From a virus (lineage: Duplodnaviria; Heunggongvirae; Uroviricota; Caudoviricetes), in IMG/VR virus record IMGVR_UViG_2671181050_000002: a DNA stretch of 12,542 nucleotides. One strand, written 5' to 3'. The notes under the pieces were generated by a model. That model was not told where the DNA came from, did not search any database, and saw only the letters and a program-made list of their open reading frames with translations. The position numbers and the translations under genes were made by a program. Numbering within the stretch: the stretch's first letter is position 1; every line of letters starts with the position of its first letter. This document shows positions 1-12,542 of the stretch, piece after piece.

Positions 1-101
1 AGGCGGAATATATGCGTCACCTTCACCAATAAATTCATTAGTTCCGGCCAGCAGATTATAAATTTTTATGGTCCGTGCTTGTTCACTCATTCTGAATGCC
101 A
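1..101 (-). CDS. tfa: Tail fibre assembly protein Tfa, 5' end only (gene continues beyond window start)
   Basis: Minus-strand translation from ATG at 101-99 gives [34 protein letters not shown], matching the lambda Tfa N-terminus as recalled; the ATG overlaps the upstream stop (TAATG). Confidence 0.8.
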
Positions 102-2198
102 TTATGCAAGCCTCACAATATAGTTAAATGCGATGTTTTTGACGGTGTTTTCCGCGTTACCCGCAGCGTTAACGGTGATGGTGTGTCCATGTGAGCCAAT
201 CGCAACGGAGTGCGTATGAGCACCAATACCGACAGTATGTGCATGTGCGCCTGCGCTTGCAGCAGTGCCGGACAGCGAGTGGGTATGAGCACCATCTGAT
301 GATGTCTTCCCTGCATTACGAGTCTGGCCACTACCGCTTGTTGTGCTCATAATCCCCGCGCTTGGATTTGAAATCGCGGTATAACCATTAGGGAAAATGC
401 TCGTGTTCGTGCCACCAAATGCACCGGAACTCTTGTGTTGGTGCGCGCCGGCACTATTTGCGGTCCCGCTAATACTATGGGTATGCGCCCCGGTGTTATT
501 CGTGGATTTGGTTCCGTAATCAAACGACGATGTGGTTTTCGTCCCCAAATCCGTACTGGATGCGCTGGCGCTGTGGGTGTGCGATTTAATGCCGTCCTGT
601 TCCTGAGACAATACGGCGCGACCACTGGCAGGTTTGCCCTTAATCGTCCAGCCACGCATATCAGGGATCACGCCTGACGGATAAGCGGCTGCAAGTTTCG
701 GGTATGCAGATTTGTCAAAAGTCTGCCCCTGCATCAGGGCATAACCAGACGGAACGGTATCTGATGGCCACGGGATTGGTGCGCCGACTGGGTAGCTTTC
801 TGGTGGAAGATTTTTCGAGGTATAAACTTCTGCCCAGTCTTCCTCAAAACCATAGCCATCTCTTGAGGAACGGTAGAACAGACCTCCATTTCTGTAATGT
901 GCCTTCACCCCCTTCACCACCTTCGGCGTGTCCCAGCGCGCCAGCACCTGATATTCCCCGCTGTCTGCGGTGACTTCGGCAGTCAGGTGCTGCACCGCTG
1001 GCGGCGTGACATCATTCACCGTGCCGCTCTGGTCGCCGTCAAAGTGCGCCCCGTTATCCACGATGGCTTCTTTTTCCGGTACATGCTGCACGGCAGTGAT
1101 GGCATACGTGCCGTCATCGTTCTCACGGATACTCACACAGCGGAACAGGCGCTGACGCAACGTCGGCAACTTCAGCCCCCACACACTGTATTCTGCAACG
1201 CCGTCAGGAACCCGGTTCACTTTCACCTTAAGTCCGTCGGTGACGGACTGAACCTCCACGCTGACCGGACTCCCCTGCCCGTCAACCAGGCTTATCAGCG
1301 TGGTGCCGGAAGATGGCAGCGTGATTTCACGGTCGAGCGTCAGCGTCCGGGTCTGGCTGTTCACCGCCAGCACGCGACCACCGGTGCTGATACCGGCATA
1401 GTCATCATCGCAGATTTCAATGACATCGCCCGGTACATGGCGAAGCCCTTCAGCACCCACGCTGAAATCCACGGTCTGCGTCTCCAGCAGTTCCGTTTTA
1501 ATCAGCCACAGCCCGGCGCGGTGTGCCTGCCCCCGGCTGGTACAGCCAAAGGCATCCATCTTCGTGACATTACGACCGTAACGGGCAATGGCCTGCGTAT
1601 CTTCAACAAGCTCTGTCGCCGTCTCCCAGCCGTTGTTCGGGTCAATCCAGTTCACCTCAACGGCATTATGGCGGTCCTTCAGGGCGCTGAAGCTGTAGCG
1701 GAACGGCGCGCCATCATCCGGCATCACCACATTACTGCGGTTATAGGTCCACACCTTATCTGATGGTCGGTCCTGCACGAACGTCAGCGTCTGCCCGTTC
1801 CATACCGGCATACAGCGCATCGCCGAGCAGAAATCACTGAGCACATCCCACGCCTTACGCTGTGTGGTCAGCCAGGCATTACAGGTGATGCGCGGCTCCG
1901 TGCCGCCAAAACCATTCGGTACCAACTGGTCGCAGTACTGGCCGATGACATACAGCGTCCATTTATCCACATCTGCTGCACCAAGACGTTTCCCCATGCC
2001 GTAGCGCGGATGGGTCAGCATATCCCACAGACACCAGGCCATGTTGTTGCTGTATGCTGGCTTAAACGTTCCATCCCAGATACCGCTGTATTGCCGCGTC
2101 TGCGGGTTATAGTTCGACGGCACCTGCAGAATGCGCCCGCGCAGATGATAATTACGGCTCACCTGCTGGCTGCCGAACTGCTCCGAGTCCACCTGCAC
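102..2198 (-). pseudogene. Chimeric tail-fibre remnant: central part of host-specificity protein J (ORF aa 1-431) fused in frame to the C-terminal ~265 aa of side tail fibre Stf (GAHTHS His-box repeats, ends [11 protein letters not shown])
   Basis: 698-aa ORF from the six-frame track. Its N-terminal part ([41 protein letters not shown] ... [12 protein letters not shown]) matches the middle of lambda J as recalled; after residue ~431 it switches to Stf-like C-terminal sequence. The first codon is GTG in the middle of J sequence with no ribosome-binding site, and the upstream A fragment is in another frame. Confidence 0.7.
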
Positions 2199-3088
2199 GC
2201 CGACCAGTGCCGTGTTCGGGTATCCCCTTTCGTCTTCATCCAGTCTTTGACAATCTGCACCCAGGTGGTGAACGGGCTGTACGCCGTCCAGATGTGAAAG
2301 GTCACACTGTCCGGCGGCTCAATCTCTTCACCGGATGACGAAAACCAGAGAATGCCATCACGGGTCCAGATCCCGGTCTTTTCGCAGATATAACGGGCAT
2401 CAGTAAAGTCCAGCTCCTGCTGGCGGATGACGCAGGCATTATGCTCGCAGAGATAAAACACGCTGGAGGGGTCATCCGGCGTCCATTTGAGGCCAAACGG
2501 CGTCTCTTTGTCGCCAAATTTAAGATACTGCTCCTCCCCGCAGTGCGGGCAGGCAACATGAAAACGCATAAAATGCGGGGATTCACTGGCTGCACGCTCA
2601 ATCTGGCAGGTGCCTCTCACTTTGGGCGTGGAGCCACGGATGGACTTTGGCCAGACCGAGCCTTCAATACGCTTGTCACCCAGGAACGTCGGAGAGCCTT
2701 CCTGTTCAATATCATCATCAAAAGCAGCAAGTTCATCATAACCCGCCACATCCACCGACTTTTCACGGTAGTTTTTTGCCGCTTTACCGCCCAGGCACCA
2801 GAAGCCACGCCCATTAGTGAAACGCTTCATGGTGAGCGTGTTATCCCGGTGCTTTTTGCCATACCACGGGGCCAGCGCCAGCAGCGACGGAATATCACGA
2901 ATAGTCGGCTCAACGTGGGTTTTCATAAAGTTCTCGGCATCACCATCCGTCGGCAACCAGATAAGGGTGTTGCGCTGCTTATGCTCTATGAAGTAGGCAT
3001 AAACACCCAGCAGCATTTTGGAATAACCAACACGGGCAGACTTCACCACATTCACCTCGCGGATGTAGTCACTGCCCATCGCATTCAT
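2159..3088 (-). pseudogene. A: Terminase large subunit (gpA) internal fragment, lacking the N-terminal ~65 aa and the entire C-terminal half
   Basis: Translation (…)[67 protein letters not shown] ... [15 protein letters not shown] matches lambda gpA as recalled, then 19 out-of-frame codons derived from J sequence before the stop at 2159. An internal ATG at 3088 is the only possible start. Confidence 0.8.
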
Positions 3089-3201
3089 GATGGCCCGCTG
3101 CCACCTCCGGAGACGCAAGGGAGTCCCTGAGACTGCCAGCGTTCAATCGTTCGCGGATCCACGTTGAAAATTTCGGCAAGTTTCTTTTTATTAACCTTCA
3201 T
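3085..3201 (-). pseudogene. Terminase small subunit (Nu1-like) N-terminal stub, 38 codons
   Basis: ATG at 3201 gives [38 protein letters not shown], resembling the Nu1 N-terminal HTH region (lambda MEVNKKQLADIFGASIRTIQNWQEQGMP...). The reading frame runs into gpA-derived sequence at about 3097-3100 and stops at 3085. Confidence 0.6.
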
Positions 3202-3225
3202 GAAACAGTCTCACAACAAACACAG

Positions 3226-3337
3226 GGTCCGACATGAAAGTGCCCGAAAATGACTTTTTTAGGCGTTTTCATGTCGGACCTTTTACGGATTCGATATTAG
3301 AAAAAACAAATAGTTATGTTCGAGAAGTACCGACATG
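3226..3337 (-). other. cosB-like region: three R-site-like repeats CATGTCGG(A/T)AC at 3226-3236, 3270-3280 (inverted) and 3327-3337
   Basis: The three 11-mers were read directly; they lie between the cosN-like site and the Nu1 start in the same R3/R2(inverted)/R1 arrangement as lambda cosB, but with a different repeat sequence. Confidence 0.55.
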
Positions 3338-3344
3338 ATTTTCC

Positions 3345-3420
3345 CCGGAAAATTTTCATAAATAGCGAAAACCCGCGCGCCTTCCGCCCCGTAACCTGTC
3401 GGATCGCCGGAAAGGACCCG
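3345..3420 (-). other. cosN/cosQ-like terminase nicking region
   Basis: Minus strand reads CCGACAGGTTACG GGGCGGAAGGCG CGCGGGTTTTCGCTATTTATGAAAATTTTCCGG. The flanks match the lambda cos sequence as recalled (…ACAGGTTACG GGGCGGCGACCT CGCGGGTTTTCGCTATTTATGAAAATTTTCCGG), but the central 6 nt of the 12-nt cohesive-end core (3378-3389) differ. Confidence 0.65.
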
Positions 3421-3588
3421 CAAAATGATAATAATTATCATCTACATGTCACAACGTGCATCTACGCCATCAAACCACGTCAAATAATCAATTATGACGC
3501 AGGTATCGTATTAATTGATCTGCATCAACTTAACGTAAAAACAACTTCAGACAATACAAATCAGCGACACTGAATACGGGGCAACCTC

Positions 3589-3822
3589 ATGTCAACGAAG
3601 AACAGAACCCGCAGAACAACAACCCGCAACATCCGCTTTCCTAACCAAATGATTGAACAAATTAACATCGCTCTTGAGCAAAAAGGGTCCGGGAATTTCT
3701 CAGCCTGGGTCATTGAAGCCTGCCGCCGGAGACTGTGCTCAGAAAAAAGAGTTTCGCCTGAAGCAAACAAAGAAAAGAGTGACATTACTGAATTGCTCAG
3801 AAAACAGGTTAGACCAGATTGA
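3589..3822 (+). CDS. Small basic protein (77 aa) with a ribbon-helix-helix-like N-terminal segment, possibly the DUF3950/YlcI-YnfO family
   Basis: ORF MSTKNRTRRTTTRNIRFPNQMIEQINIALEQKGSGNFSAWVIEACRRRL... has a beta-strand / helix / helix pattern typical of Arc/CopG-type RHH proteins. The corresponding DNA is conserved in the lambda right arm next to cos (recalled). Family name is from memory. Confidence 0.5.
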   Translation: MSTKNRTRRTTTRNIRFPNQMIEQINIALEQKGSGNFSAWVIEACRRRLCSEKRVSPEANKEKSDITELLRKQVRPD

Positions 3823-3879
3823 AGCAATTTAGATAATCGTGCAGACTACGCCCCCTCATATCACATGGAAGGTACTACA

Positions 3880-4290
3880 ATGGCTCAGGTTGCCATTTTT
3901 AAACAAATATTCGATAAAGTGCGAAATAATTTAAACTATCACTGGTTTTATTCTGAACTAAAACGTCACAATGTCTCACATTACATTTACTATTTAGCCA
4001 CAGAGAATATTCATCTTGTTCTTGAAAACGATAATACGGTTTTAATAAAAGGACAGGGTAAGGTTGTAAATGTAAGATTTTCAAAAAATAAATGCCTTAT
4101 AGAAGCCACCTTAAAAGGATTCAAATCAGGAGAGTTATCATTTTACGAATACAGGAAAAATCTTGCTACAGCAGGGGTTTTCAGATGGATTACAAATATC
4201 CACGAAAACAAAAGGTATTACTATACCTTTGATAATTCATTACTCTTTACTGAGAACATTCAGAACACTACACAAATATTTCCGCACTAA
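3880..4290 (+). CDS. AT-rich hypothetical protein (136 aa from MAQVAIF), conserved lambda right-arm ORF
   Basis: ORF intact; a recalled lambda right-arm ORF translates to a related protein (about 75 percent identity by eye) with the reading frame preserved, which suggests a real gene. Followed by hairpin GTCCGGTT-N13-AACCGGAC at 4301-4329. Confidence 0.5.
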
Positions 4291-4878
4291 ATCATAACGT
4301 CCGGTTTCTTCCGTGCCAGAACCGGACTCGCTGGCATGATGAAATATGTGTACCCGGTAACCCCGGTGTGCATCGTTTTTGATTATTCCCGCACACTCGC
4401 GCAGAAGGAGTTCCCCGTCGGGCTACGGTCTCTGTTAATACGGGAATACGGCGACGATACAGCGCATGATGTGTCAGGCTTGAATGCCTTTATCCTTTAA
4501 AAGGGATATCAGTTAAGTTATCCCGTGTAGGGTATAAGCCATTATCAAAGCCACTCTGTAGGGAATGGCTTTTGTGATGGCATCACTTACTCTTTACGCT
4601 GCTATCCCACTCATCCCGGAATTTTGATGGGTTATTGAAACCTTCTGCTGACATAACAACTCCTTCAATGTTTGGCTGAAATTAGGATGTCTTTCCATCA
4701 GTCCGCCACCACAAAGAATCTTTTTTGCCATAAGGCAGGAGGTTCATCTTTCAGTGGCTGCCGGTGTTATTTCCCCACTTACTGGCTTGGGTTGTTTCGT
4801 GGTACTGCCGTTAACTGGTGGCCCAGAATAAATTCCGGTTTCATTATCAAGCCCACCCGTAAATGGGCTTTGTAATGG

Positions 4879-5148
4879 CTACTTCACTTTTGCTTTTGCT
4901 TTTGCTTCCGCTCGCTTACGCCGGCGCTCTTCTTTCCTCTCGGCTTTTGCCATGTCCATGAATGCCTGCATGATCGAGTTCCGCATCATGTAGCTAACAA
5001 AGTGATGATTGACACAGCCGTTGAGGCGCAGCTGCTCGCCAAACTCATCCACCGAGGCCAATGCTTCCATCATGCCCTTCTCGCCTTTCATGAACTCTGA
5101 GAAGTCGCGCCCCGCTCTGGAGGCGCATTCAATGACACGATCACTCAT
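4879..5148 (-). CDS. Hypothetical protein (89 aa) with a Lys/Arg-rich C-terminal tail
   Basis: ORF MSDRVIECASRAGRDFSEF...KAERKEERRRKRAEAKAKAKVK; its ATG overlaps the stop of the upstream KilA-N ORF (ATGA), suggesting translational coupling. No homolog recognised. Confidence 0.4.
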   Translation of the reverse strand: MSDRVIECASRAGRDFSEFMKGEKGMMEALASVDEFGEQLRLNGCVNHHFVSYMMRNSIMQAFMDMAKAERKEERRRKRAEAKAKAKVK

Positions 5149-5641
5149 CCCGGAAGCCCGGGGATCGTAATCTGCAGCTGGTTAGCCAGGGAGTTAATCT
5201 CAGCGACCAACACTGGCTTCGTATAGCGCCATGCTGCCAGCCCTTGTCCGCAGAAGCTCGCCATGTCTTTCTTCTGGTCAAACTCATGACATTTCATGTT
5301 GAGCTGCGCACTTAAGCTGTTGCGATGCTGAAGTTCTCCGGTGAAGTAGTCATCGAGGACTTTATAGGCCGCGTACTTGAACCCGGGGTTTAACCAAGCC
5401 GCATAATCGTAAGCAACAAACTTCCCGCCATATGTTCCACCGTGTACACCGCGCTCAGTAAAAACCACAGATTCGTGGTTTTTCTCCAGCTCGGCTAAGA
5501 ACTCTTTGGTCTGCTTGTTTCGCAGGTAGTGGTAAGGCGATTCAGATTCACTTTTACCACTGGCTTTCCACATACAGTGAGGCAGATCATGCCATCTTCA
5601 CCGATACGAATTGGTTGATTGAAGAGGGTTAATGATTTCAT
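5145..5641 (-). pseudogene. KilA-N domain protein with an apparent -1 frameshift near 5571-5576; intact downstream ORF is 5145..5573 (142 aa)
   Basis: The 142-aa ORF contains KilA-N/APSES-like motifs (SPYHYLRNKQTKEFLAELEK ... GGTYGGKFVAYDYAAWLNPGF). The expected N-terminal strand MKSLTLFNQPIRIGEDGMICLT is encoded from ATG 5641 in a different frame and stops after 47 codons. Confidence 0.5.
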
Positions 5642-5756
5642 AGCGTGTACCTACTCTTTGAAATGAACCTTTGCCGCACAGGAAACCAGCCCACCGAGGC
5701 TCGCCAGCACTAACTGGTATCCTCAAAGGCCCATTCCAAAGGGGCAGGTTCGGTGT

Positions 5757-5810
5757 AAAAAACATGCGTTGCGGTACGCATTTATTGCAAAAAGCCCCGC
5801 ATCGCGAGGC
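5757..5810 (-). terminator. Two tandem intrinsic-terminator-like hairpins downstream of Rz
   Basis: Minus-strand hairpin 5794-5810 (GCCTCGC/GCGGGGC with a G-U pair) followed by TTTTTG, and hairpin 5764-5781 (ATGCGT-N6-ACGCAT) followed by GTTTTTT. Confidence 0.5.
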
Positions 5811-5842
5811 TCATTAAATGGACTTTGTGATTTGCAAAAAAA

Positions 5843-6301
5843 TTATTTCAGGCATTGCGTCCTGATGTATTCCTGCAGGTAGTTAACCTGCGCGGTTATC
5901 TTGTCGATTCCACTTCGGAGACGGTAATAATTGAGTTCAGCATCTGCTGTAAGTCCTGGGCTTTCTCCATCGCCCATGCCGCTGGCTCCGGTCGTTGACT
6001 TTGCACAGGTGGCGGCGACTTGCAGGCGCTTACGCCCAGCAGAAACATCAGCACGGAGACTTTCGATAGTCGCGTTAGCATCAGCAAGCTCCTTTGTGTA
6101 TCTTGCGTCGAGTTCTGCTACATCACGTTGACGCTTCCGCATGTCAGCGATGGTGGCGTTCGCCTTCTCCAGTTCTCTGGCATTTTTGTCGCGCTGGGCT
6201 TTGTAGGTAATGGCGTTATCACGGTAATGATTAACAGCCCATGACAGGCAGACGATGATGCAGATAACCAGAGCGGAGATAATCGCGGTTACTCTGTTCA
6301 T
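5843..6301 (-). CDS. rzpD: Spanin inner-membrane subunit Rz
   Basis: [45 protein letters not shown]... has an N-terminal TM helix and coiled-coil region typical of Rz. The ATG at 6301 overlaps the endolysin stop (ATGA). Confidence 0.8.
5896..6087 (-). CDS. rzoD: Spanin outer-membrane lipoprotein Rz1, nested in the +1 frame of Rz
   Basis: ORF wholly inside Rz in another frame; signal peptide ending in a lipobox-like LLGVSAC followed by a Pro-rich mature part ([16 protein letters not shown]...). Exact start (M1 or M3) uncertain. Confidence 0.65.
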
Positions 6302-6795
6302 TGCTGACCCCACAAACAGATTTCACGCTCAATCTCACGACGAGTCATGAGACCTTTCCATTGCTTACCGCCAGCATATGTCCAGCGACGTAGCTGATCA
6401 CATGCGCCTTTGATATCGCCCTGGTTTATTTTGCGAAGAAGTGTCGATGTTCTGAAATTGCCAGCGCCCACGTTGTAAACGAACGAGTAAAGAGCGCCGC
6501 GCGTTGTTTCCGGTATATCAACTTTTATGTACGGGTTAATTTGTCTGGCGACCGTGGCAAGGTCTTTATTCAGGAGGGCTTTGCATTCTGCTTTGGTATA
6601 CGTTTTACCGAGCATGATGTCTTTTCCTGTATGCCCGTGACATACAGTCCATACACCAACAATATCTTTGTATGGTATGTAGCTGACACCTTCCAGACCA
6701 TCGTTACCACTTGGGCCAGTGATTAACACTGATGCTATAGCAATTGCTCCGCCACCAATAGCAGCAGCAACGGCTTTTCGTAATGATGGAGGCAT
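6298..6795 (-). CDS. rrrD: SAR endolysin (lysozyme R, phage 21 type)
   Basis: 165 aa, N-terminal Gly/Ala-rich signal-anchor-release segment ([20 protein letters not shown]) followed by a T4-lysozyme-like catalytic region; matches the R21/RrrD sequence as recalled. Confidence 0.85.
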
Positions 6796-7010
6796 TATTC
6801 ACCTCTCGCAGCCTTGCGCTTATCTTCTTTAATCTTGAAATAAAGGTTTGTCAGGTACGTCAGCAGGCCAAATACCAGGCTACCCAGCACACCTATTGCT
6901 GCCCACTGTGAGGGCGTGACTTTATCGAGCAGCTGTAAAAACCAGTACCCGGCACTACCTGCTGAGGTGCCATAGGCGACACCCGTTGTTAACTTATCCA
7001 TGGATTTCAT
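6795..7010 (-). CDS. essD: Pinholin S (phage 21 type) with dual-start motif MKSM
   Basis: 71 aa, [71 protein letters not shown], two TM helices; stop overlaps the endolysin start by 1 nt (TGATG); GAGGTG upstream of the start. Confidence 0.85.
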
Positions 7011-7119
7011 AACCCCACCTCGCAGACAAAGCGGGTGTAAATTGAGGGAATACTACGAAACGTAACAGACTCGGAGTCAGTGAATAACTCAGGTATTGGG
7101 TTATCAGCTAATATCGAGA

Positions 7120-7155
7120 CTCAAAAAATGGAAAAACCCGCTCGACGGCGGGTTT
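7120..7155 (-). terminator. Intrinsic terminator upstream of the lysis cassette (tR'-like position)
   Basis: Hairpin AAACCCGC-N6-GCGGGTTT (7134-7155) followed on the minus strand by TTCCATTTTTTGAG. Confidence 0.5.
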
Positions 7156-7583
7156 AAGCTGTGTGACGAAGTAACCACTCTTAACAGCATAACCAATTTT
7201 TTACGTACGTAAACCACTAAATGATATTTGCGAGAATGCTACCGAGTATTGAAAACACCACTACAAATACATAAGCAAATCTCAACAAATAACCAACAAA
7301 TAATTTCCAGCGTTATTTTTAGTCAATTTAAATTGAACCTTCAAATTATAGAGCACTTATAAATAACAGCCATTAATATAAATTGGCTAATAGATTTATT
7401 TTTATTCAGTCAAGAGCCATGAATAGGATTCGATAGAAAAAAGTTCAGATAAAAATAGAGATCTACTTCACAAATCAAACGAGAAACCAAAACTTACATC
7501 TTGAAATATTCACATTGATTAGATGAATATTTATCGCGCAGTGACATCATTTTTTAATAATAGTTCAAAAAAAAGGGCTCACG

Positions 7584-8666
7584 ATGAAAAAATTAACAGT
7601 GGCAATTTCTGCTGTAGCTGCATCAGTACTGATGGCGATGTCTGCTCAGGCAGCTGAAATTTATAATAAAGACAGTAACAAGCTGGATCTGTACGGGAAA
7701 GTTAATGCTAAGCACTACTTCTCCTCTAATGATGCAGATGATGGTGATACTACTTATGCCCGTCTTGGCTTCAAAGGTGAAACCCAAATCAACGATCAAC
7801 TGACTGGTTTCGGTCAGTGGGAATATGAATTCAAAGGCAACCGCGCTGAATCTCAAGGTTCCTCCAAAGATAAAACCCGTCTTGCCTTCGCTGGCCTGAA
7901 ATTCGGTGACTACGGCTCCATCGATTACGGCCGTAACTACGGTGTAGCATACGACATCGGTGCATGGACCGACGTTCTGCCAGAATTCGGTGGCGATACC
8001 TGGACCCAAACAGATGTATTCATGACTGGTCGCACCACAGGTGTTGCAACTTATCGTAACAACGACTTCTTTGGTCTGGTTGATGGCCTGAACTTTGCAG
8101 CTCAGTATCAGGGCAAAAATGACCGAAATGAAGTAACTGAAGCTAATGGCGATGGTTTCGGTTTCTCAACTACTTATGAGTATGAAGGATTCGGCGTGGG
8201 TGCAACCTATGCTAAATCTGATCGCACTAATAATCAGGTTATCTACGGTAACAACGGTCTGAATGCTTCTGGTCAAAATGCTGAAGTATGGGCAGCTGGT
8301 CTGAAATATGATGCGAACAACATCTATCTGGCCACCACCTATTCTGAAACCCAGAACATGACTGTTTTTGGTAATAACCATATTGCCAACAAAGCACAAA
8401 ACTTCGAAGCTGTTGCACAATATCAGTTCGACTTCGGCCTGCGTCCATCCGTTGCTTACCTGCATTCTAAAGGAAAAGACTTGGGTGTTTGGGGTGATCA
8501 GGACCTGGTTGAATATGTTGATGTAGGTGCAACCTATTACTTCAACAAAAATATGTCCACTTTTGTTGACTACAAAATCAACCTGATTGATAAGAGCGAT
8601 TTCACGAAAGCATCTGGCGTTGCTACCGATGATATCGTTGCTGTAGGTATGGTTTACCAGTTCTAA
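7584..8666 (+). CDS. nmpC: Outer-membrane porin, NmpC/OmpD-like (OmpC/OmpF/PhoE family), apparently intact
   Basis: 360 aa; signal peptide [23 protein letters not shown] then AEIYNKD...; C-terminal VGMVYQF typical of general porins; closely matches DLP12 NmpC as recalled. Confidence 0.85.
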
Positions 8667-8673
8667 TTTGATT

Positions 8674-8735
8674 ACTAAAAGATATGTTGTGGGAGGCTTT
8701 GCCTCCCCAACATATAAGTGGCTCCCTCAAGCCAC
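8674..8735. terminator. Hairpin cluster immediately downstream of nmpC: 15-bp stem at 8682-8715 and 6-bp stem at 8718-8735
   Basis: ATATGTTGTGGGAGGC-ttt-GCCTCCCCAACATAT (one bulged T); on the minus strand it is followed by CTTTTAG, on the plus strand the second hairpin is followed by TTCCTTT. Possibly bidirectional. Confidence 0.4.
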
Positions 8736-8784
8736 TTCCTTTAGAAGCACAACCTTGCTTCTAACTATATAAACCTTCTGTTAT

Positions 8785-8815
8785 ATATTACCCTTTATTT
8801 TTGGGGGCGTTTCAA
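8785..8815 (-). promoter_or_regulatory. Candidate late promoter (pR'-like) just downstream of Q: TTGAAA-19 nt-TAATAT
   Basis: Minus strand -35-like TTGAAA (plus 8810-8815) and -10-like TAATAT (plus 8785-8790), about 40 bp after the quuD stop; the hairpins at 8682-8735 would give a short terminated leader. Sequence-pattern inference only; the 19-nt spacer is suboptimal. Confidence 0.3.
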
Positions 8816-8830
8816 CGCCCCATTTTTAAT
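8804..8830 (+). terminator. Intrinsic terminator, plus strand (likely nmpC terminator)
   Basis: GGGGCG-tttcaa-CGCCCC followed by ATTTTTAAT. Confidence 0.5.
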
Positions 8831-8854
8831 AACTTTTAGTAAATAATTGGCGTA

Positions 8855-9238
8855 TTAATTAGAGTTATTAACAACGATATCCATCTCTAACCGGATATCT
8901 AATGCCATTAACATCCCTTCAATTATGCCCTCAGCCTTTTGTAACCTTTTCCCGATATAACCATCAGAGCAGCAATGCTTACCTGCCAGTGACATGAATG
9001 TCATACCGACTATATAATAATCTACTAATAAATCGTGCAAATCGCTGTTGTTCTTTTTCAGACGGGCCATGCACCCGCAAATGATCATCGCGTCATCGTC
9101 ACAACATTGCGGGCGAGATTTTACTTTTGAAGGAATTAATCCCTTAAAACCGGCGGCAATGGACGACCAGGTCACATCTTCATGATTATTAGCCGCCCAC
9201 GCTCCCCAACGCTCAAGAACCATCTGAATATCACGCAT
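8855..9238 (-). CDS. quuD: Late-gene antiterminator Q (phage 82 type)
   Basis: 127 aa from [60 protein letters not shown]...; GGAG 8 nt upstream of this ATG; matches DLP12 QuuD as recalled. The longer ORF-track start (9253) lacks an RBS. Confidence 0.8.
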
Positions 9239-9323
9239 CAACTTACTCCACAAAAATCAGACCAAAACGCCAATTACAAGCAAAAATCAACAAAACAGTA
9301 TTAGTTGATTGTTATCTCTGACT

Positions 9324-9464
9324 TCATACTCCTGCTCCTGTCAGTGTTTTGGCGTAATTCTTCAGTATTCGGTAATCGGTCAAAACAGAACCGGGGAAAC
9401 GATATAAGCGCAGACGCCCCCAGCGGTGGCGAAGAAGTTCTGCCATATTAAACTCAAACATCAT
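9324..9464 (-). CDS. ylcG: Small protein YlcG-like (46 aa)
   Basis: Translated by hand: [46 protein letters not shown]; ATG overlaps the rusA stop (ATGA). Below the ORF-track size cutoff. Confidence 0.55.
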
Positions 9465-9823
9465 TCATTCCCCATTTCGGTGATGGTCAGTTCCAGCCTC
9501 CCACCTTTGGTAACAGGCATCTTCACAACGCGGTAATCAACGACCTGAGCATCATCCAGCCAGAAACCTGCTTTAGTGAGTGCGTCAAAAGCGGCTTTTT
9601 GCAGATTATCCAGGTCACGGCGACGGCGATCCGGCATGTGGCACTCAATGCGGATTTTCACAGGCATAGCCAGGCCGATATCCAGCATTGCGTTTTTAAT
9701 GATTCGGGCGACGTTATCACGGTATGCCTGCCCTTCTGCGCTGATGTGCGTGCGCCCGCGATTATGCCGGTAGTAGCGGTTATTGCTCGGAGGCCAGGGT
9801 AATGTGATGCTGTAGGTATTCAC
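9461..9823 (-). CDS. rusA: Holliday-junction resolvase RusA
   Basis: 120 aa [120 protein letters not shown]; GTG start overlaps the upstream stop (GTGA). Confidence 0.85.
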
Positions 9824-9948
9824 GCCTTAATAACCCCCTCTTTCAGCCAGATAACCTGTGTTCTCGCCATACCTTCCAGCGCGCATTCTTTTGCATATGC
9901 AGCATCGACTTGCTTGGCATGCCCTTTACCGGCAATCTTCTGTATGCG
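9820..9948 (-). pseudogene. ybcO: ybcO-like 3' remnant (C-terminal ~41 codons, no start codon)
   Basis: The frame coupled to the rusA start reads ...[33 protein letters not shown], resembling the C-terminus of DLP12 YbcO as recalled; upstream in this frame are stops at 9949-9951 and 9955-9957 and no ATG. The 9949-10029 segment has no convincing coding frame. Confidence 0.4.
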
Positions 9949-10029
9949 CTAAACCTAGATAGAATCCACTCTGTGCACATTGAAGCCCGCTCTATGCTTC
10001 CTTTCAGGTATTGAAGGGATTGAGATGGG

Positions 10030-10377
10030 CTAAGCATTATTGGCCTCCTGCATCAGGAGAAAGACAATCATGGCGGCGCGGAGAGGTCTGGTATCAAATA
10101 TTGGGCTTACGCCTTTTGCATCCACACACCATTCAGTTAACTGGTCTAAGATAGAAATCCTGTATTTCTCAATAATCGGCCATGAAGCGCTCGGATCATT
10201 GCAGTAGTCAGGCAAATGATTTAATGGCTCAAAAGTTGTATCAGCATTTCCGTAATACCATTTGTTGGTGTTATTCCCTGATGTTTCCGGTTTACTTGCC
10301 CAAAGGCCTTTAAAAATTATGTCTCCTACCATTCTGTTAATTTCAAAATCACTTAACTGTGAATAATCCATTGTCAT
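10030..10377 (-). CDS. Hypothetical nin-region protein (115 aa from [20 protein letters not shown]...)
   Basis: ORF-track entry 10030..10413; the ATG at 10377 overlaps the ninE stop (ATGA), so it is the likely start. I could not place it in a family with confidence (possibly DUF2591/NinX-like, from memory). Confidence 0.5.
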
Positions 10378-10550
10378 TTCCTCGCACGATATCTTAGCCA
10401 CCGGATATCCCACAGGTGAGCTGTGTAATTGAAGGTTTTTACGTCAGATTCTTTTGGGATTGGCTTGCGTTTATTTCTGGAGCGTTTCGTTGGAAGGTAT
10501 TTGCAGTTTTCGCAGATGATGTCGGTGAAACTTCGTCGCTGTCGCCTCAT
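10374..10550 (-). CDS. ninE: NinE protein (58 aa)
   Basis: [58 protein letters not shown], matching lambda/DLP12 NinE as recalled; ATG overlaps the methyltransferase stop (ATGA). Confidence 0.75.
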
Positions 10551-11074
10551 GCCGCCCTCCTGACGCCCTGCCCGATCGCCATCAATGCCGCTTTGGATAC
10601 GGTAGTAAACATCCGTCGAGGACTGATGAACGGTCGCCAAATCAGCAGCATGGAGCCTTTGCTGTTTCCCTTCTTCTCCAGCCCTGTCGATGGTTCGATA
10701 AAATTAATCCGTCCATCAGTGATAATGCGAACTTCGTCGACACTCTCCAGAGCCTTGCTGAACCATCCGACTGACATATCCTCTGGCACAAGCATAACTA
10801 CCGTCTGTCGCTGTTGTATGCACTGCTCAGCGGCTTTTTCCACCCACGGCCTGATATTGCTGTACGGTGGGTTATTCCAGATTGCACCGTGGCTTACCCA
10901 CTCAGAATTGAGCGCGTCGTCGGCCTCAGTTAGCCAGTGAGCACACAGAGCATTTTTGTCGCTCGCTGCCGAATCCAGCCAGAATCCAAACTCAATATCC
11001 AGTGCATCAAAAAGCCAAAGCGGCGTTTGCCAGCAGTCCTTGTCGTGTGCTGGCGTATTTGATTTGATAGTCAT
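10547..11074 (-). CDS. Phage-type orphan DNA N6-adenine methyltransferase (Dam family), 175 aa
   Basis: From [31 protein letters not shown]...; catalytic NPPY motif ([14 protein letters not shown]); ATG overlaps the ninB stop (ATGA). No adjacent restriction endonuclease gene. Confidence 0.75.
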
Positions 11075-11511
11075 GCAGCCCGATCTCCCCATCTCGCTTT
11101 CCACTCCAGAGCCAGTCTCGCTTCGTCTGACCACTTAACGCCACGCTCTGTACCGAATGCCTGTATAAGCTCTAATAGCTCCGCAAATTCGCCTACACGC
11201 ATCCTGCTGGTTGACTGGCCTATTACCACAAAGCCATTCCCGGCAAGGTTAGGAACAACATCCTGCTGCTTTAATGCTGCGGTAAACACACACTTCCAGC
11301 TTTCTGCATCCAGCCAGCGACCATGCCATTCAACCTGACGAGAGACGTCACCTAAGCAGGCCCATAGCTTCCTGTTTTGGTCTAAGCTGCGGTTGCGTTC
11401 CTGAATGGTTACTACGATTGGTTTGGTTGGGTCTGGAAGGATTTGCTGTACTGCGTGAATAGCGTTTTGCTGATGTGCTGGAGATCGAATTTCAAAGGTT
11501 AGTTTTTTCAT
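11071..11511 (-). CDS. ninB: Recombination protein NinB (Orf family)
   Basis: 146 aa from MKKLTFEIRSPAHQQNAIHAVQQILPDPTKPIVVTIQERNRSLDQNRKLWACLGDVSRQVEWHGRWLDAESWKCVF..., matching lambda NinB as recalled; GGGAGAGGGAAG upstream of the ATG at 11511. Confidence 0.85.
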   Translation of the reverse strand: MKKLTFEIRSPAHQQNAIHAVQQILPDPTKPIVVTIQERNRSLDQNRKLWACLGDVSRQVEWHGRWLDAESWKCVFTAALKQQDVVPNLAGNGFVVIGQSTSRMRVGEFAELLELIQAFGTERGVKWSDEARLALEWKARWGDRAA

Positions 11512-11526
11512 GACTTCCCTCTCCCC

Positions 11527-11559
11527 CAAATAAAAAGGCCTGCGATTACCAGCAGGCCT
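11527..11559 (-). terminator. tR2-like intrinsic terminator upstream of ninB
   Basis: Hairpin AGGCCTGC-N8-GCAGGCCT (11536-11559) followed on the minus strand by TTTTATTTGG; it occupies the position of lambda tR2 (between ren and ninB). Confidence 0.45.
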
Positions 11560-11579
11560 GTTATTAGCTCAGTAATGTA

Positions 11580-11648
11580 GCAGAACACATCCGGTACATG
11601 GTTGAAACCATTGCTCACCACCAGGTTGATATTGATTCAGAGGTATAA
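11580..11648 (+). pseudogene. gam: gam 3' stub (last 22 codons and stop of the Gam inhibitor of RecBCD)
   Basis: In-frame [25 protein letters not shown] ends 5 nt before the bet ATG, matching the Gam C-terminus as recalled; upstream the frame is closed by TAG at 11565-11567 and no gam N-terminus is present. Confidence 0.6.
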
Positions 11649-11653
11649 AACGG

Positions 11654-12439
11654 ATGAGTACAGCACTCGCAACGCTGGCAGGGAAGCTGGCTGAACGTGT
11701 CGGCATGGATTCTGTCGACCCACAGGAACTGATCACCACTCTTCGCCAGACGGCATTTAAAGGCGATGCCAGCGATGCGCAGTTCATCGCATTGTTGATC
11801 GTCGCCAACCAGTACGGCCTTAATCCGTGGACGAAAGAAATTTACGCCTTCCCTGACAAGCAGAACGGCATCGTTCCGGTGGTGGGCGTTGATGGCTGGT
11901 CCCGTATCATCAATGAAAACCAGCAGTTTGATGGCATGGACTTTGAGCAGGACAATGAATCCTGCACATGCCGGATTTACCGCAAGGACCGTAATCATCC
12001 GATCTGCGTTACCGAGTGGATGGATGAATGCCGCCGCGAACCATTCAAAACCCGCGAAGGCAGAGAAATCACGGGGCCGTGGCAGTCGCATCCCAAACGG
12101 ATGTTACGTCATAAAGCCATGATTCAGTGTGCCCGTCTGGCCTTCGGATTTGCTGGTATCTATGACAAGGATGAAGCCGAGCGCATTGTCGAAAATACTG
12201 CATACACTGCAGAACGTCAGCCAGAACGCGACATCACTCCGGTTAACGATGAAACCATGCAGGAGATTAACACTCTGCTGATCGCCCTGGATAAAACATG
12301 GGATGACGACTTATTGCCGCTCTGTTCCCAGATATTTCGCCGCGACATTCGCGCATCGTCAGAACTGACACAGGCCGAAGCAGTGAAAGCTCTTGGATTC
12401 CTGAAACAGAAAGCCACTGAGCAGAAGGTGGCAGCATGA
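11654..12439 (+). CDS. bet: Single-strand annealing protein Bet (Red beta)
   Basis: 261 aa [84 protein letters not shown]..., essentially the lambda Bet sequence as recalled. Confidence 0.9.
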
Positions 12440-12542
12440 CACCGGACATTATCCTGCAGCGTACCGGGATCGACGTGAGAGCTGTCGAACAGGGGGATGA
12501 TGCGTGGCACAAATTACGGCTCGGCGTCATCACCGCTTCAGA
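12436..12542 (+). CDS. exo: Lambda exonuclease Exo (Red alpha), 5' end only (continues beyond window end)
   Basis: ATG at 12436 overlaps the bet stop (ATGA); translation [36 protein letters not shown] matches the lambda Exo N-terminus as recalled. Confidence 0.85.

Follow-up and report, generated by a model that had tools for sequence, protein, structure and literature searches.

Background

Defective lambdoid prophages are a well-known class of elements, and the closest described relatives of the locus reported here include DLP12 of Escherichia coli K-12, a remnant of ~21 kb at argU, and the K-12 prophages Rac and Qin, which keep silent recombination genes (recET in Rac) or lysis and Q modules. 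Genes kept in Rac and Qin can regain activity through mutation or be rescued when infecting phages recombine with them. The cryptic-prophage class to which both belong is covered by a review (PMC6379469). Here we describe a stretch of 12,542 nucleotides (IMG/VR record IMGVR_UViG_2671181050_000002; "the window" denotes this whole stretch), which is almost certainly the central part of a ~20-kb cryptic (defective) mosaic lambdoid prophage located at att-lambda (ybhC/ybhB-bio) in an E. coli lineage. The map of this element, its joints and their reproducibility, its open reading frames and its location at att-lambda are all read directly from the DNA, and it is an ordinary dead prophage fossil, another case within the known class. 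Rac and Qin differ from it in their sites and gene content and carry RecET instead of Red, so that their sequence relation to it is limited to shared lambdoid modules.

Overall architecture

The window was compared by BLASTN with the lambda reference, NC_001416. It reads as a lambdoid genome in reverse orientation, with blocks in the order tfa'/stf', J', A', Nu1', cos, right arm, Rz-R-S, porin, Q, nin genes, ninB and gam'-bet-exo'; these are collinear with lambda, and the gene order is also collinear with that of annotated lambdoid prophages. The matches to lambda, by window position, are as follows.

1-239 and 507-785: stf/tfa, lambda 22074-21245
1-239: tfa-end block, lambda 22074-21836
905-2222: J, lambda 17455-16138, 94.9% identity
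2211-3100: A, lambda 1768-879, 98.4% identity
3390-3751: lambda right end, reaching the last lambda base, 48502
3806-4466: right arm
6032-6301: Rz, 87% identity
10377-10543: ninE
11071-11580: ninB with its upstream spacer, lambda 41084-40575, 99.6% identity
11580-12542: gam'-bet-exo', lambda 32884-31922, 97.9% identity

The original prediction, made from this sequence alone, was of a lambda-type prophage collinear with lambda and cut down to its recombination, nin, Q, lysis and cos modules, with the immunity, replication, head and most tail genes gone. The blocks above bear out the collinearity, and BLAST mapping, junction analysis and genomic context support the reduction, with the addition that scraps of the tail-fibre genes are also kept. 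The losses are accounted for by four deletions mapped to the base, and no O, P, cI, N, W-FII or Z-I genes were found in the window or in the 20-kb loci of other assemblies that carry the same element (sister loci). The mapped gene losses also support the prediction that virions cannot be formed, and the element would be unable to be induced, to replicate or to build particles.

The four deletion joints

The joints were aligned base by base to the best parent-like sequences, which were those of lambda, TW10590 and TUM9757.

11580 (J1): lambda 40575 in the ren-ninB spacer meets lambda 32884 inside gam; one shared base, G
3100/3101 (J2): codon 34 of a small terminase gene of phage-21 type meets lambda 879 in A; 0 bp shared
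2220-2222 (J3): lambda 1768 in terminase A meets lambda 16138 in J; GTA shared
905-907 (J4): lambda 17455 in J meets the middle of stf; TCA shared

J1 corresponds to a loss of 7,690 bp in lambda coordinates that removed the gam N-terminus, kil, cIII, N, the immunity region, cro, cII, O, P and ren, and took out pL, pR, N and cI together. At J2, 587 bp are missing relative to the intact copy in the TW10590 prophage. The largest loss, 14,369 bp in lambda coordinates, is that at J3, where the A C-terminus, W, B, C, D, E, FI, FII, Z, U, V, G, T, H, M, L, K, I and the J N-terminus are gone and the shared GTA sits within a 9/12 imperfect match (2211-2222). J4 removed 4,876 bp relative to TUM9757 (14317-19192 of locus L022), comprising the J C-terminus, lom and the stf N-terminus. 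Neither insertion sequence (IS) elements nor long homology are present at any of the four joints, which look like ordinary illegitimate deletions. All four junctions named in the original prediction exist, and both BLASTN and base-level alignment place them within a few bases of the predicted positions. The ancestor would have been 45-50 kb long, combining lambda-type int/xis/att, Red and ninB with a DLP12-type Q-porin-S-R-Rz segment and phage-21-type cosB/Nu1, and ~27.5 kb would have been lost from it via four independent illegitimate deletions with 0-3 bp of microhomology.

The following gene fragments lie at the joints and at the tfa-side end of the window.

1-102, minus strand: tfa', first 34 codons, with its ATG (102-100) overlapping the stf stop; continues past the window
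102-2198, minus strand: J'-Stf' frame, a 698-residue in-frame fusion without a native start codon
2159-3100, minus strand: A', internal fragment of the large terminase, ATPase part (lambda A 879-1768)
3085-3201, minus strand: Nu1', a 38-codon stub of 34 small-terminase residues followed by SGPS and a stop; 85% DNA identity to phage 21 cos/gp1 and 100% to prophages of enterotoxigenic E. coli (ETEC)
11580-11648, plus strand: gam', last 22 codons only

The J'-Stf' frame, taken from the open reading frame list and from BLASTN against lambda and TUM9757, fuses a piece from within J (905-2198) to the C-terminal portion of Stf (102-907), and Pfam assigns Phage-tail_3, Ig_J and Collar to the identical 698-residue protein. 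A' is called as a 309-residue open reading frame (2159-3088) that ends out of frame in J sequence. Its only Pfam domain is GpA_ATPase, whereas intact copies have GpA_ATPase and GpA_nuclease, and the nuclease and portal-binding part of terminase A is missing. The TGA stop of Nu1' overlaps an internal ATG of A (ATGA, 3088-3085), and the 309-residue A' frame could therefore be translationally coupled to the Nu1' stub. This overlap and the in-frame joint of J' to Stf' are probably accidents.

Recurrence of the joints in other assemblies

Carriers of the same element were found by exact look-up of the J'-Stf' fusion, Rz and A' proteins. The 12 loci fetched (L004-L007, L025, L027, L032-L037) match the window across all joints, with aligned lengths of 3.5-12.5 kb and identities of 99.77-100%. 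They derive from isolate and metagenome assemblies held at ENA, NCBI and JGI, and each has private single-nucleotide polymorphisms (SNPs). At least 10 independent assemblies share the identical architecture, and the carrier assemblies are as follows.

ENA: ERZ1741985, ERZ28641206, ERZ918237, ERZ28615706, ERZ28635967
NCBI: GCA_948144105.1, GCA_016856385.1, GCA_008041115.1
JGI: 3300039332

The exact J'-Stf' fusion protein is encoded on 15 contigs of public assemblies. For the J3-spanning A' protein the index of the collection lists 50 blocks; all four joints are present in each of the six contexts shown for it (6/6), and no intermediates with only some of the joints were seen among these. An exact-pattern scan for J1 in species-representative genome contigs and JGI metagenome contigs gave no match, the lineage being absent from those sets. 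The original prediction had named assembly artefacts at the junctions as what would undo it; since identical joints occur in separately assembled contigs from isolates and metagenomes, contig-join artefacts are excluded.

Integration site and flanking regions

The flanks of the element were read in the sister contigs. On the tfa side the full tfa gene (193 residues, Caudo_TAP) is followed by an AT-rich stretch, an AraC-family regulator, IS3-family debris and a lambda attR, which consists of the lambda P-arm, the core ACTTTTTTATACTAA and the bacterial B' arm CTTGAGCGAAACGGGAAGG and directly adjoins ybhB-bioABFCD. On the exo side the contigs contain exo at full length (226 residues), DUF1317, DUF1382, traR-like and ea22-like genes, xis and a 356-residue Int, and the int-xis DNA is 99.0% identical to lambda 28249-29165 (917 bp). 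The lambda-type int/xis, the complete exo and the true attR beside ybhB-bio thus identify the element as an E. coli prophage at att-lambda, and, of the att sites and int that the original prediction suggested looking for nearby, attR and int have been located. The flanking chromosomal DNA shows 99.6-99.8% identity to E. coli genomes, the tfa-AraC-attR-bio arrangement is shared by 176 complete E. coli genomes, and strain TUM9757 has the full layout ybhC-int-xis...J-stf-tfa at the att-lambda site. Judging from the 99% lambda-like int and the TUM9757 layout, attL would lie at the corresponding position, beyond the reach of the carrier contigs; its BOP' core is presumably GCTTTTTTATACTAA. The element would then span about 20.6 kb from attL to attR.

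An origin in Shigella was rejected on account of the identity of the flanking chromosome to that of ordinary E. coli. An engineered lambda-Red strain was likewise rejected, since the element is present in gut and environmental metagenomes, has no markers and no cI857-N-gam part of the kind found in constructs, and has a truncated gam.

The region to the right of tfa (L004 13530-15790, outside the window) corresponds to the b region. In addition to the IS3-family debris it holds a 3' fragment of a serU-like tRNA-Ser that was read by eye (ARAGORN gave no complete tRNA there), and its AraC-family regulator varies in length among copies (231, 247 or 308 residues), with an 83-bp indel between L025 and L027. 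The region looks like a piece of another island captured beside attR.

Mosaic origin of the modules

The sequence comparisons identify the element as a mosaic lambdoid and not as lambda proper. With the lambda prophage, whose attB lies between gal and bio, it shares the site, the orientation (int...J-stf-tfa-attR-bio) and the overall gene order, but the lambda-like modules are only int/xis (99%), Red (97-98% over exo-bet-gam'), ninB (99.6%), A' (98.4%) and J' (94.9%). Apart from the ~27.5 kb that are missing, Q, S, R, the porin moron, most nin genes, the right-arm genes and cosB/Nu1 are of other lambdoid types, and cosN differs as described below. The Int/att specificity is that of lambda, as seen in the int-xis identity and in the lambda arm sequences of attR; Q, lysis and the cosB/Nu1 packaging specificity are not of lambda type, and phage lambda sensu stricto (Lambdavirus lambda) was rejected as the identity of the element on these features.

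The source of the late module is apparent from K-12. The ybcO'-rusA-ylcG-Q segment is 98% identical to DLP12 and the porin-S-R-Rz segment is 92% identical to it (nmpC-essD-rrrD-rzpD). The Q protein belongs to Pfam PF06530 (QuuD type), whereas lambda-type Q belongs to PF03589, as in locus L028, and neither S nor R has a BLASTN match to lambda. The cosB/Nu1' segment at 3101-3344 (244 bp) is of phage-21 type: its identity is 85% with phage 21, 97% with phage IdasGreatGrand and 100% with ETEC prophages. It cannot be aligned to lambda except for 76 bp at 79%.

3202-3389, minus strand: cos region; its cosB is of phage-21 type and lines up with the sites R1, R2, I1 and R3 annotated in phage 21
3378-3389, minus strand: cosN, GGGCGGAAGGCG in phage orientation, placed by alignment, with the lambda right end at window 3390

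In cosN, 5 of the 12 bases differ from GGGCGGCGACCT of lambda and phage 21. The same variant is present in an undeleted relative of the element, the prophage L024 (GCA_025390815.1), which has a lambda-type cosB, and in the TW10590 prophage, which has a 21-type cosB; it is thus a natural cohesive-end variant and not damage. The two cosB types switch at a conserved stretch ending at window 3345. A further mosaic boundary lies at a stub of ybcO, where homology to TUM9757 and to DLP12 stops at 9909.

Comparison with DLP12 and functional relatives

The likeness to DLP12 extends beyond its rusA/ylcG/quuD and lysis segments. Both elements have the ylcI/ybcV right-arm genes, both keep cos and a truncated terminase A (aaaD in DLP12) joined to tail-fibre scraps, and in both an AraC-type regulator lies beyond tfa. 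The differences are equally plain. DLP12 lies at argU with its own integrase (intD), as do the DLP12-type prophages L001 and L003 with respect to site, whereas the element lies at att-lambda with lambda Int. The joints are independent, since the aaaD/tfaD joint maps to window 2961, which is none of J1-J4, and no K-12 match spans any of the four. The nmpC gene of K-12 is split by IS5, whereas the porin gene of the window is uninterrupted; exoD is a pseudogene, whereas bet and exo are full length in the element; the emrE-ybcK-ybcN region occupies the place of ninB-dam-ninE-ninX; and Nu1, intact in DLP12 (nohD), is truncated in the window. The two were rejected as the same element because site, integrase and joints all differ.

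The functional lambdoid phages ev099, mEp332 and PhiR11_1 are 96-98% identical to the window over the cos-ninB segment (~3345-11580), but they and the L024 prophage keep the immunity, replication, head and tail regions.

Since the window and the sister loci hold only ordinary lambdoid genes or morons, a phage satellite (phage-inducible chromosomal island, PICI, or cos-satellite) was also rejected; neither primase, replication initiator nor capsid-redirecting genes were found in the window or the sister loci. A satellite-like insert was observed elsewhere, in the att-lambda prophage of TUM9757 (L023 29173-38590). It encodes a helix-turn-helix protein, a TIR-domain protein, an Icd-like protein, a primase, a single-stranded DNA-binding protein, its own major capsid and decoration proteins and a DUF262/HEPN pair. 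It stops just before a 5'-truncated major capsid gene, and the preceding terminase-to-D genes are not annotated there. At the corresponding place in L024 (19456-20459) an integrase gene follows the head decoration gene D. This may represent a satellite that forms capsids and is directed at the head region of lambdoids.

Retained genes

Open frames were judged by translation and by match to annotated homologues. The remaining features of the window are listed in order of position.

3589-3822, plus strand: YlcI-like DUF3950 gene (Pfam on sister contigs)
3880-4290, plus strand: YbcV-like DUF1398 gene (Pfam on sister contigs)
4336-4500, plus strand: orf54, a right-arm accessory gene
4879-5148, minus strand: orf89
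5145-5641, minus strand: KilA-N/ORF11CD3 gene, frameshifted in the window; 165 residues in sister copies
5843-6301, minus strand: Rz i-spanin, 152 residues, open, Pfam Phage_lysis
within 5896-6087, minus strand: Rz1 lipoprotein frame embedded in Rz, lipobox LLGVSAC, open
6298-6795, minus strand: R endolysin, 165 residues, open, Pfam Phage_lysozyme
6795-7010, minus strand: S holin, 71 residues, open, Pfam Phage_holin_2_1
7134-7155, minus strand: terminator-like hairpin upstream of S, in the AT-rich porin-S spacer
7584-8666, plus strand: porin, 360 residues, OmpC/NmpC/Lc family, Pfam Porin_1, uninterrupted
8804-8821: terminator-like hairpin of the porin gene
8855-9238, minus strand: Q, 127 residues, QuuD type (PF06530), not of the lambda Q family
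9324-9464, minus strand: ylcG, 46 residues
9461-9823, minus strand: rusA, 120 residues
9820-9909, minus strand: ybcO/DUF1364 stub
10030-10371, minus strand: ninX, 113 residues
10374-10550, minus strand: ninE, 58 residues
10547-11074, minus strand: Dam-type methyltransferase, 175 residues
11071-11511, minus strand: ninB, 146 residues
11536-11559, minus strand: tR2-like intrinsic terminator, an 8-bp GC-rich stem followed by TTTTTATTT, between J1 and ninB
11654-12439, plus strand: bet, 261 residues, open
12436-12542, plus strand: exo', cut by the window end; 226 residues in sister contigs

The lysis cassette (as apparently intact), Q, rusA, ninB and the porin gene were predicted to be retained, and all are full-length open frames. 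Of the Red pair, also predicted, bet is open in the window and exo is cut by the end of the stretch; exo is complete in the sister contigs.

The hairpin at 7134-7155 is, by its position, a candidate for the late terminator tR'. That at 11536-11559, whose sequence is identical to that of lambda just upstream of ninB, we take to be tR2. The ybcO stub is also annotated as partial in the argU prophages L001 and L003, and its presence in other prophages points to an older event, common to many lambdoids, and not to a deletion specific to the remnant. The porin gene, which runs counter to the late operon, belongs to the morons of the PA-2 lc / DLP12 nmpC type; the identical porin protein is widespread (7,500 blocks), and the identical Bet is found in 72,617 blocks. 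The KilA-N gene has a 1-bp deletion at 5575, outside any homopolymer, which is specific to the window and absent from all sister copies covering the position (11/11); either the gene has become a pseudogene in this strain, or the source was missequenced at this base. Scans of the window for tRNA and Rfam RNA were negative.

Recency of the decay

The undeleted prophage L024 is 99.89% identical to the window over 3345-11580, with 8 substitutions and 1 indel over 8.2 kb. It keeps cI, cro, cII, O, P, ren and Nu1-A-W-B-C-D, and on sequence similarity it shows what the ancestor is likely to have looked like. With a divergence of ~0.1% the decay looks recent, and the intactness of the retained genes therefore says little about selection; these genes are probably intact mainly because the decay is recent.

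Two clusters of private SNPs were observed. Relative to all sister copies the window has seven in bet-exo (11680-12504), and L032 has 17 in J' (window-equivalent 1380-2010). The Bet allele of the window is the globally common one. The clusters suggest gene-conversion patches from other resident lambdoid prophages.

Expression of the remnant and alternative explanations

The 142 bp that separate the divergent bet and ninB genes at J1 contain no match to a sigma-70-like promoter, and a strong terminator hairpin lies in them directly ahead of ninB. In the deleted element bet-exo would have lost pL, and ninB-Q would have lost pR and N. Without pR and N, Q should not be made and the late transcript should consequently stop at the 7155-7134 hairpin before S. 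The porin gene is most likely the one that is expressed and the best candidate for a product relevant to the host; we assume its expression from the example of two similar morons, PA-2 lc and DLP12 nmpC. The suggestion in the original prediction that the remnant could still contribute lysis, recombination or outer-membrane functions is thus reasonable as a statement of potential, but the Red, nin-Q and lysis genes are probably not expressed, which leaves the porin. The remaining genes would constitute a reservoir, open to reactivation by promoter-creating mutations or to recombination into incoming lambdoid phages.

Several points weigh against the reading of the locus as a dead prophage at att-lambda. 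In megablast searches with joint-spanning queries of 200-240 bp, J1 and J3 were found in none of 5,426 complete RefSeq E. coli genomes, and the carrier lineage is known only from draft and metagenome assemblies. The carrier loci end 437 bp inside int, so that attL and ybhC are not read in the carrier contig. That the Red, nin-Q and, via Q, lysis genes are silent, as they most likely are, is deduced only from their missing promoters. In K-12 the lysis operon of DLP12, an element decayed to a comparable degree, is reportedly still transcribed and has an influence on vesiculation (PMC7918800), and some Q-independent expression of the retained genes is possible.

The last two points bear on domestication, in which the lysis cassette, Q and porin, perhaps with Red, RusA and NinB, would have been kept by selection for the host. 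Such service might concern outer-membrane permeability or, following a proposal made for DLP12, the turnover of peptidoglycan and the control of vesicles. The retained frames are open while the structural genes have been removed, the Q-porin-SRRz module is also kept, and its lysis operon reportedly transcribed, in DLP12, cryptic prophages as a class contribute to stress tolerance (PMC3105296; PMC6379469), and the remnant is stably inherited in many assemblies. However, with only ~0.1% divergence from the undeleted relative, frames would be expected to stay open even if selection were absent, the window copy already has a frameshift in one accessory gene, and the early promoters and N are lost with a terminator ahead of ninB. 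The substitutions are too few for a ratio of nonsynonymous to synonymous rates (dN/dS), and on balance we regard domestication as unlikely. We give still less credence to a lineage-fixed and partly domesticated module in a broader sense, in which Q-independent expression of the uninterrupted porin and the lysis genes would alter the envelope or vesicles, matching helper phages would cut the complete 21-type cos, with its variant cosN, and transduce bio-side DNA, or the J'-Stf' protein would act as a receptor-binding decoy.

The presence of cosQ-side sequence, cosN and a 21-type cosB identical to those of apparently intact ETEC prophages, together with int, xis and an intact attR, would be expected of a helper-dependent mobile element, which a helper with matching terminase could excise and package, or cleave in situ at cos with transduction of the bio side. 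Lambda packaging requires a minimum of roughly 75% of 48.5 kb, and at ~20 kb the element is far below it. It has neither replication functions nor the hallmarks of satellites (primase, capsid-size redirection, helper-sensing repressor), expression of int would need promoters or activators that are deleted, and there is no sign of horizontal spread, every copy seen being at one locus; such mobility is very improbable. Finally, chimeric assembly of several lambdoid prophages from one genome or metagenome has a classic cause at hand in the near-identical lambdoid segments abundant in E. coli (a median of 7 matching places per genome) and would fit the absence of J1 and J3 from the complete genomes screened, but its likelihood is negligible given joints that recur to the base across samples and pipelines, private SNPs in individual copies and contigs that continue into the single-copy chromosome (bioABFCD).

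Implications

The dead lambdoid prophage described here has a significance that beyond good annotation is small. For annotation, its intact-looking lysis, Q and Red genes are to be flagged as parts of a non-inducible remnant and not as an active prophage. It also offers a clean, datable example of prophage decay, in which four illegitimate deletions arose without IS elements at a textbook lambda site, at ~0.1% from an undeleted relative. The same element is found again in the 12 loci fetched, which come from assemblies of natural E. coli. As a case of cryptic prophages that appear still to swap patches with resident lambdoids, it bears on how such remnants feed mosaicism.

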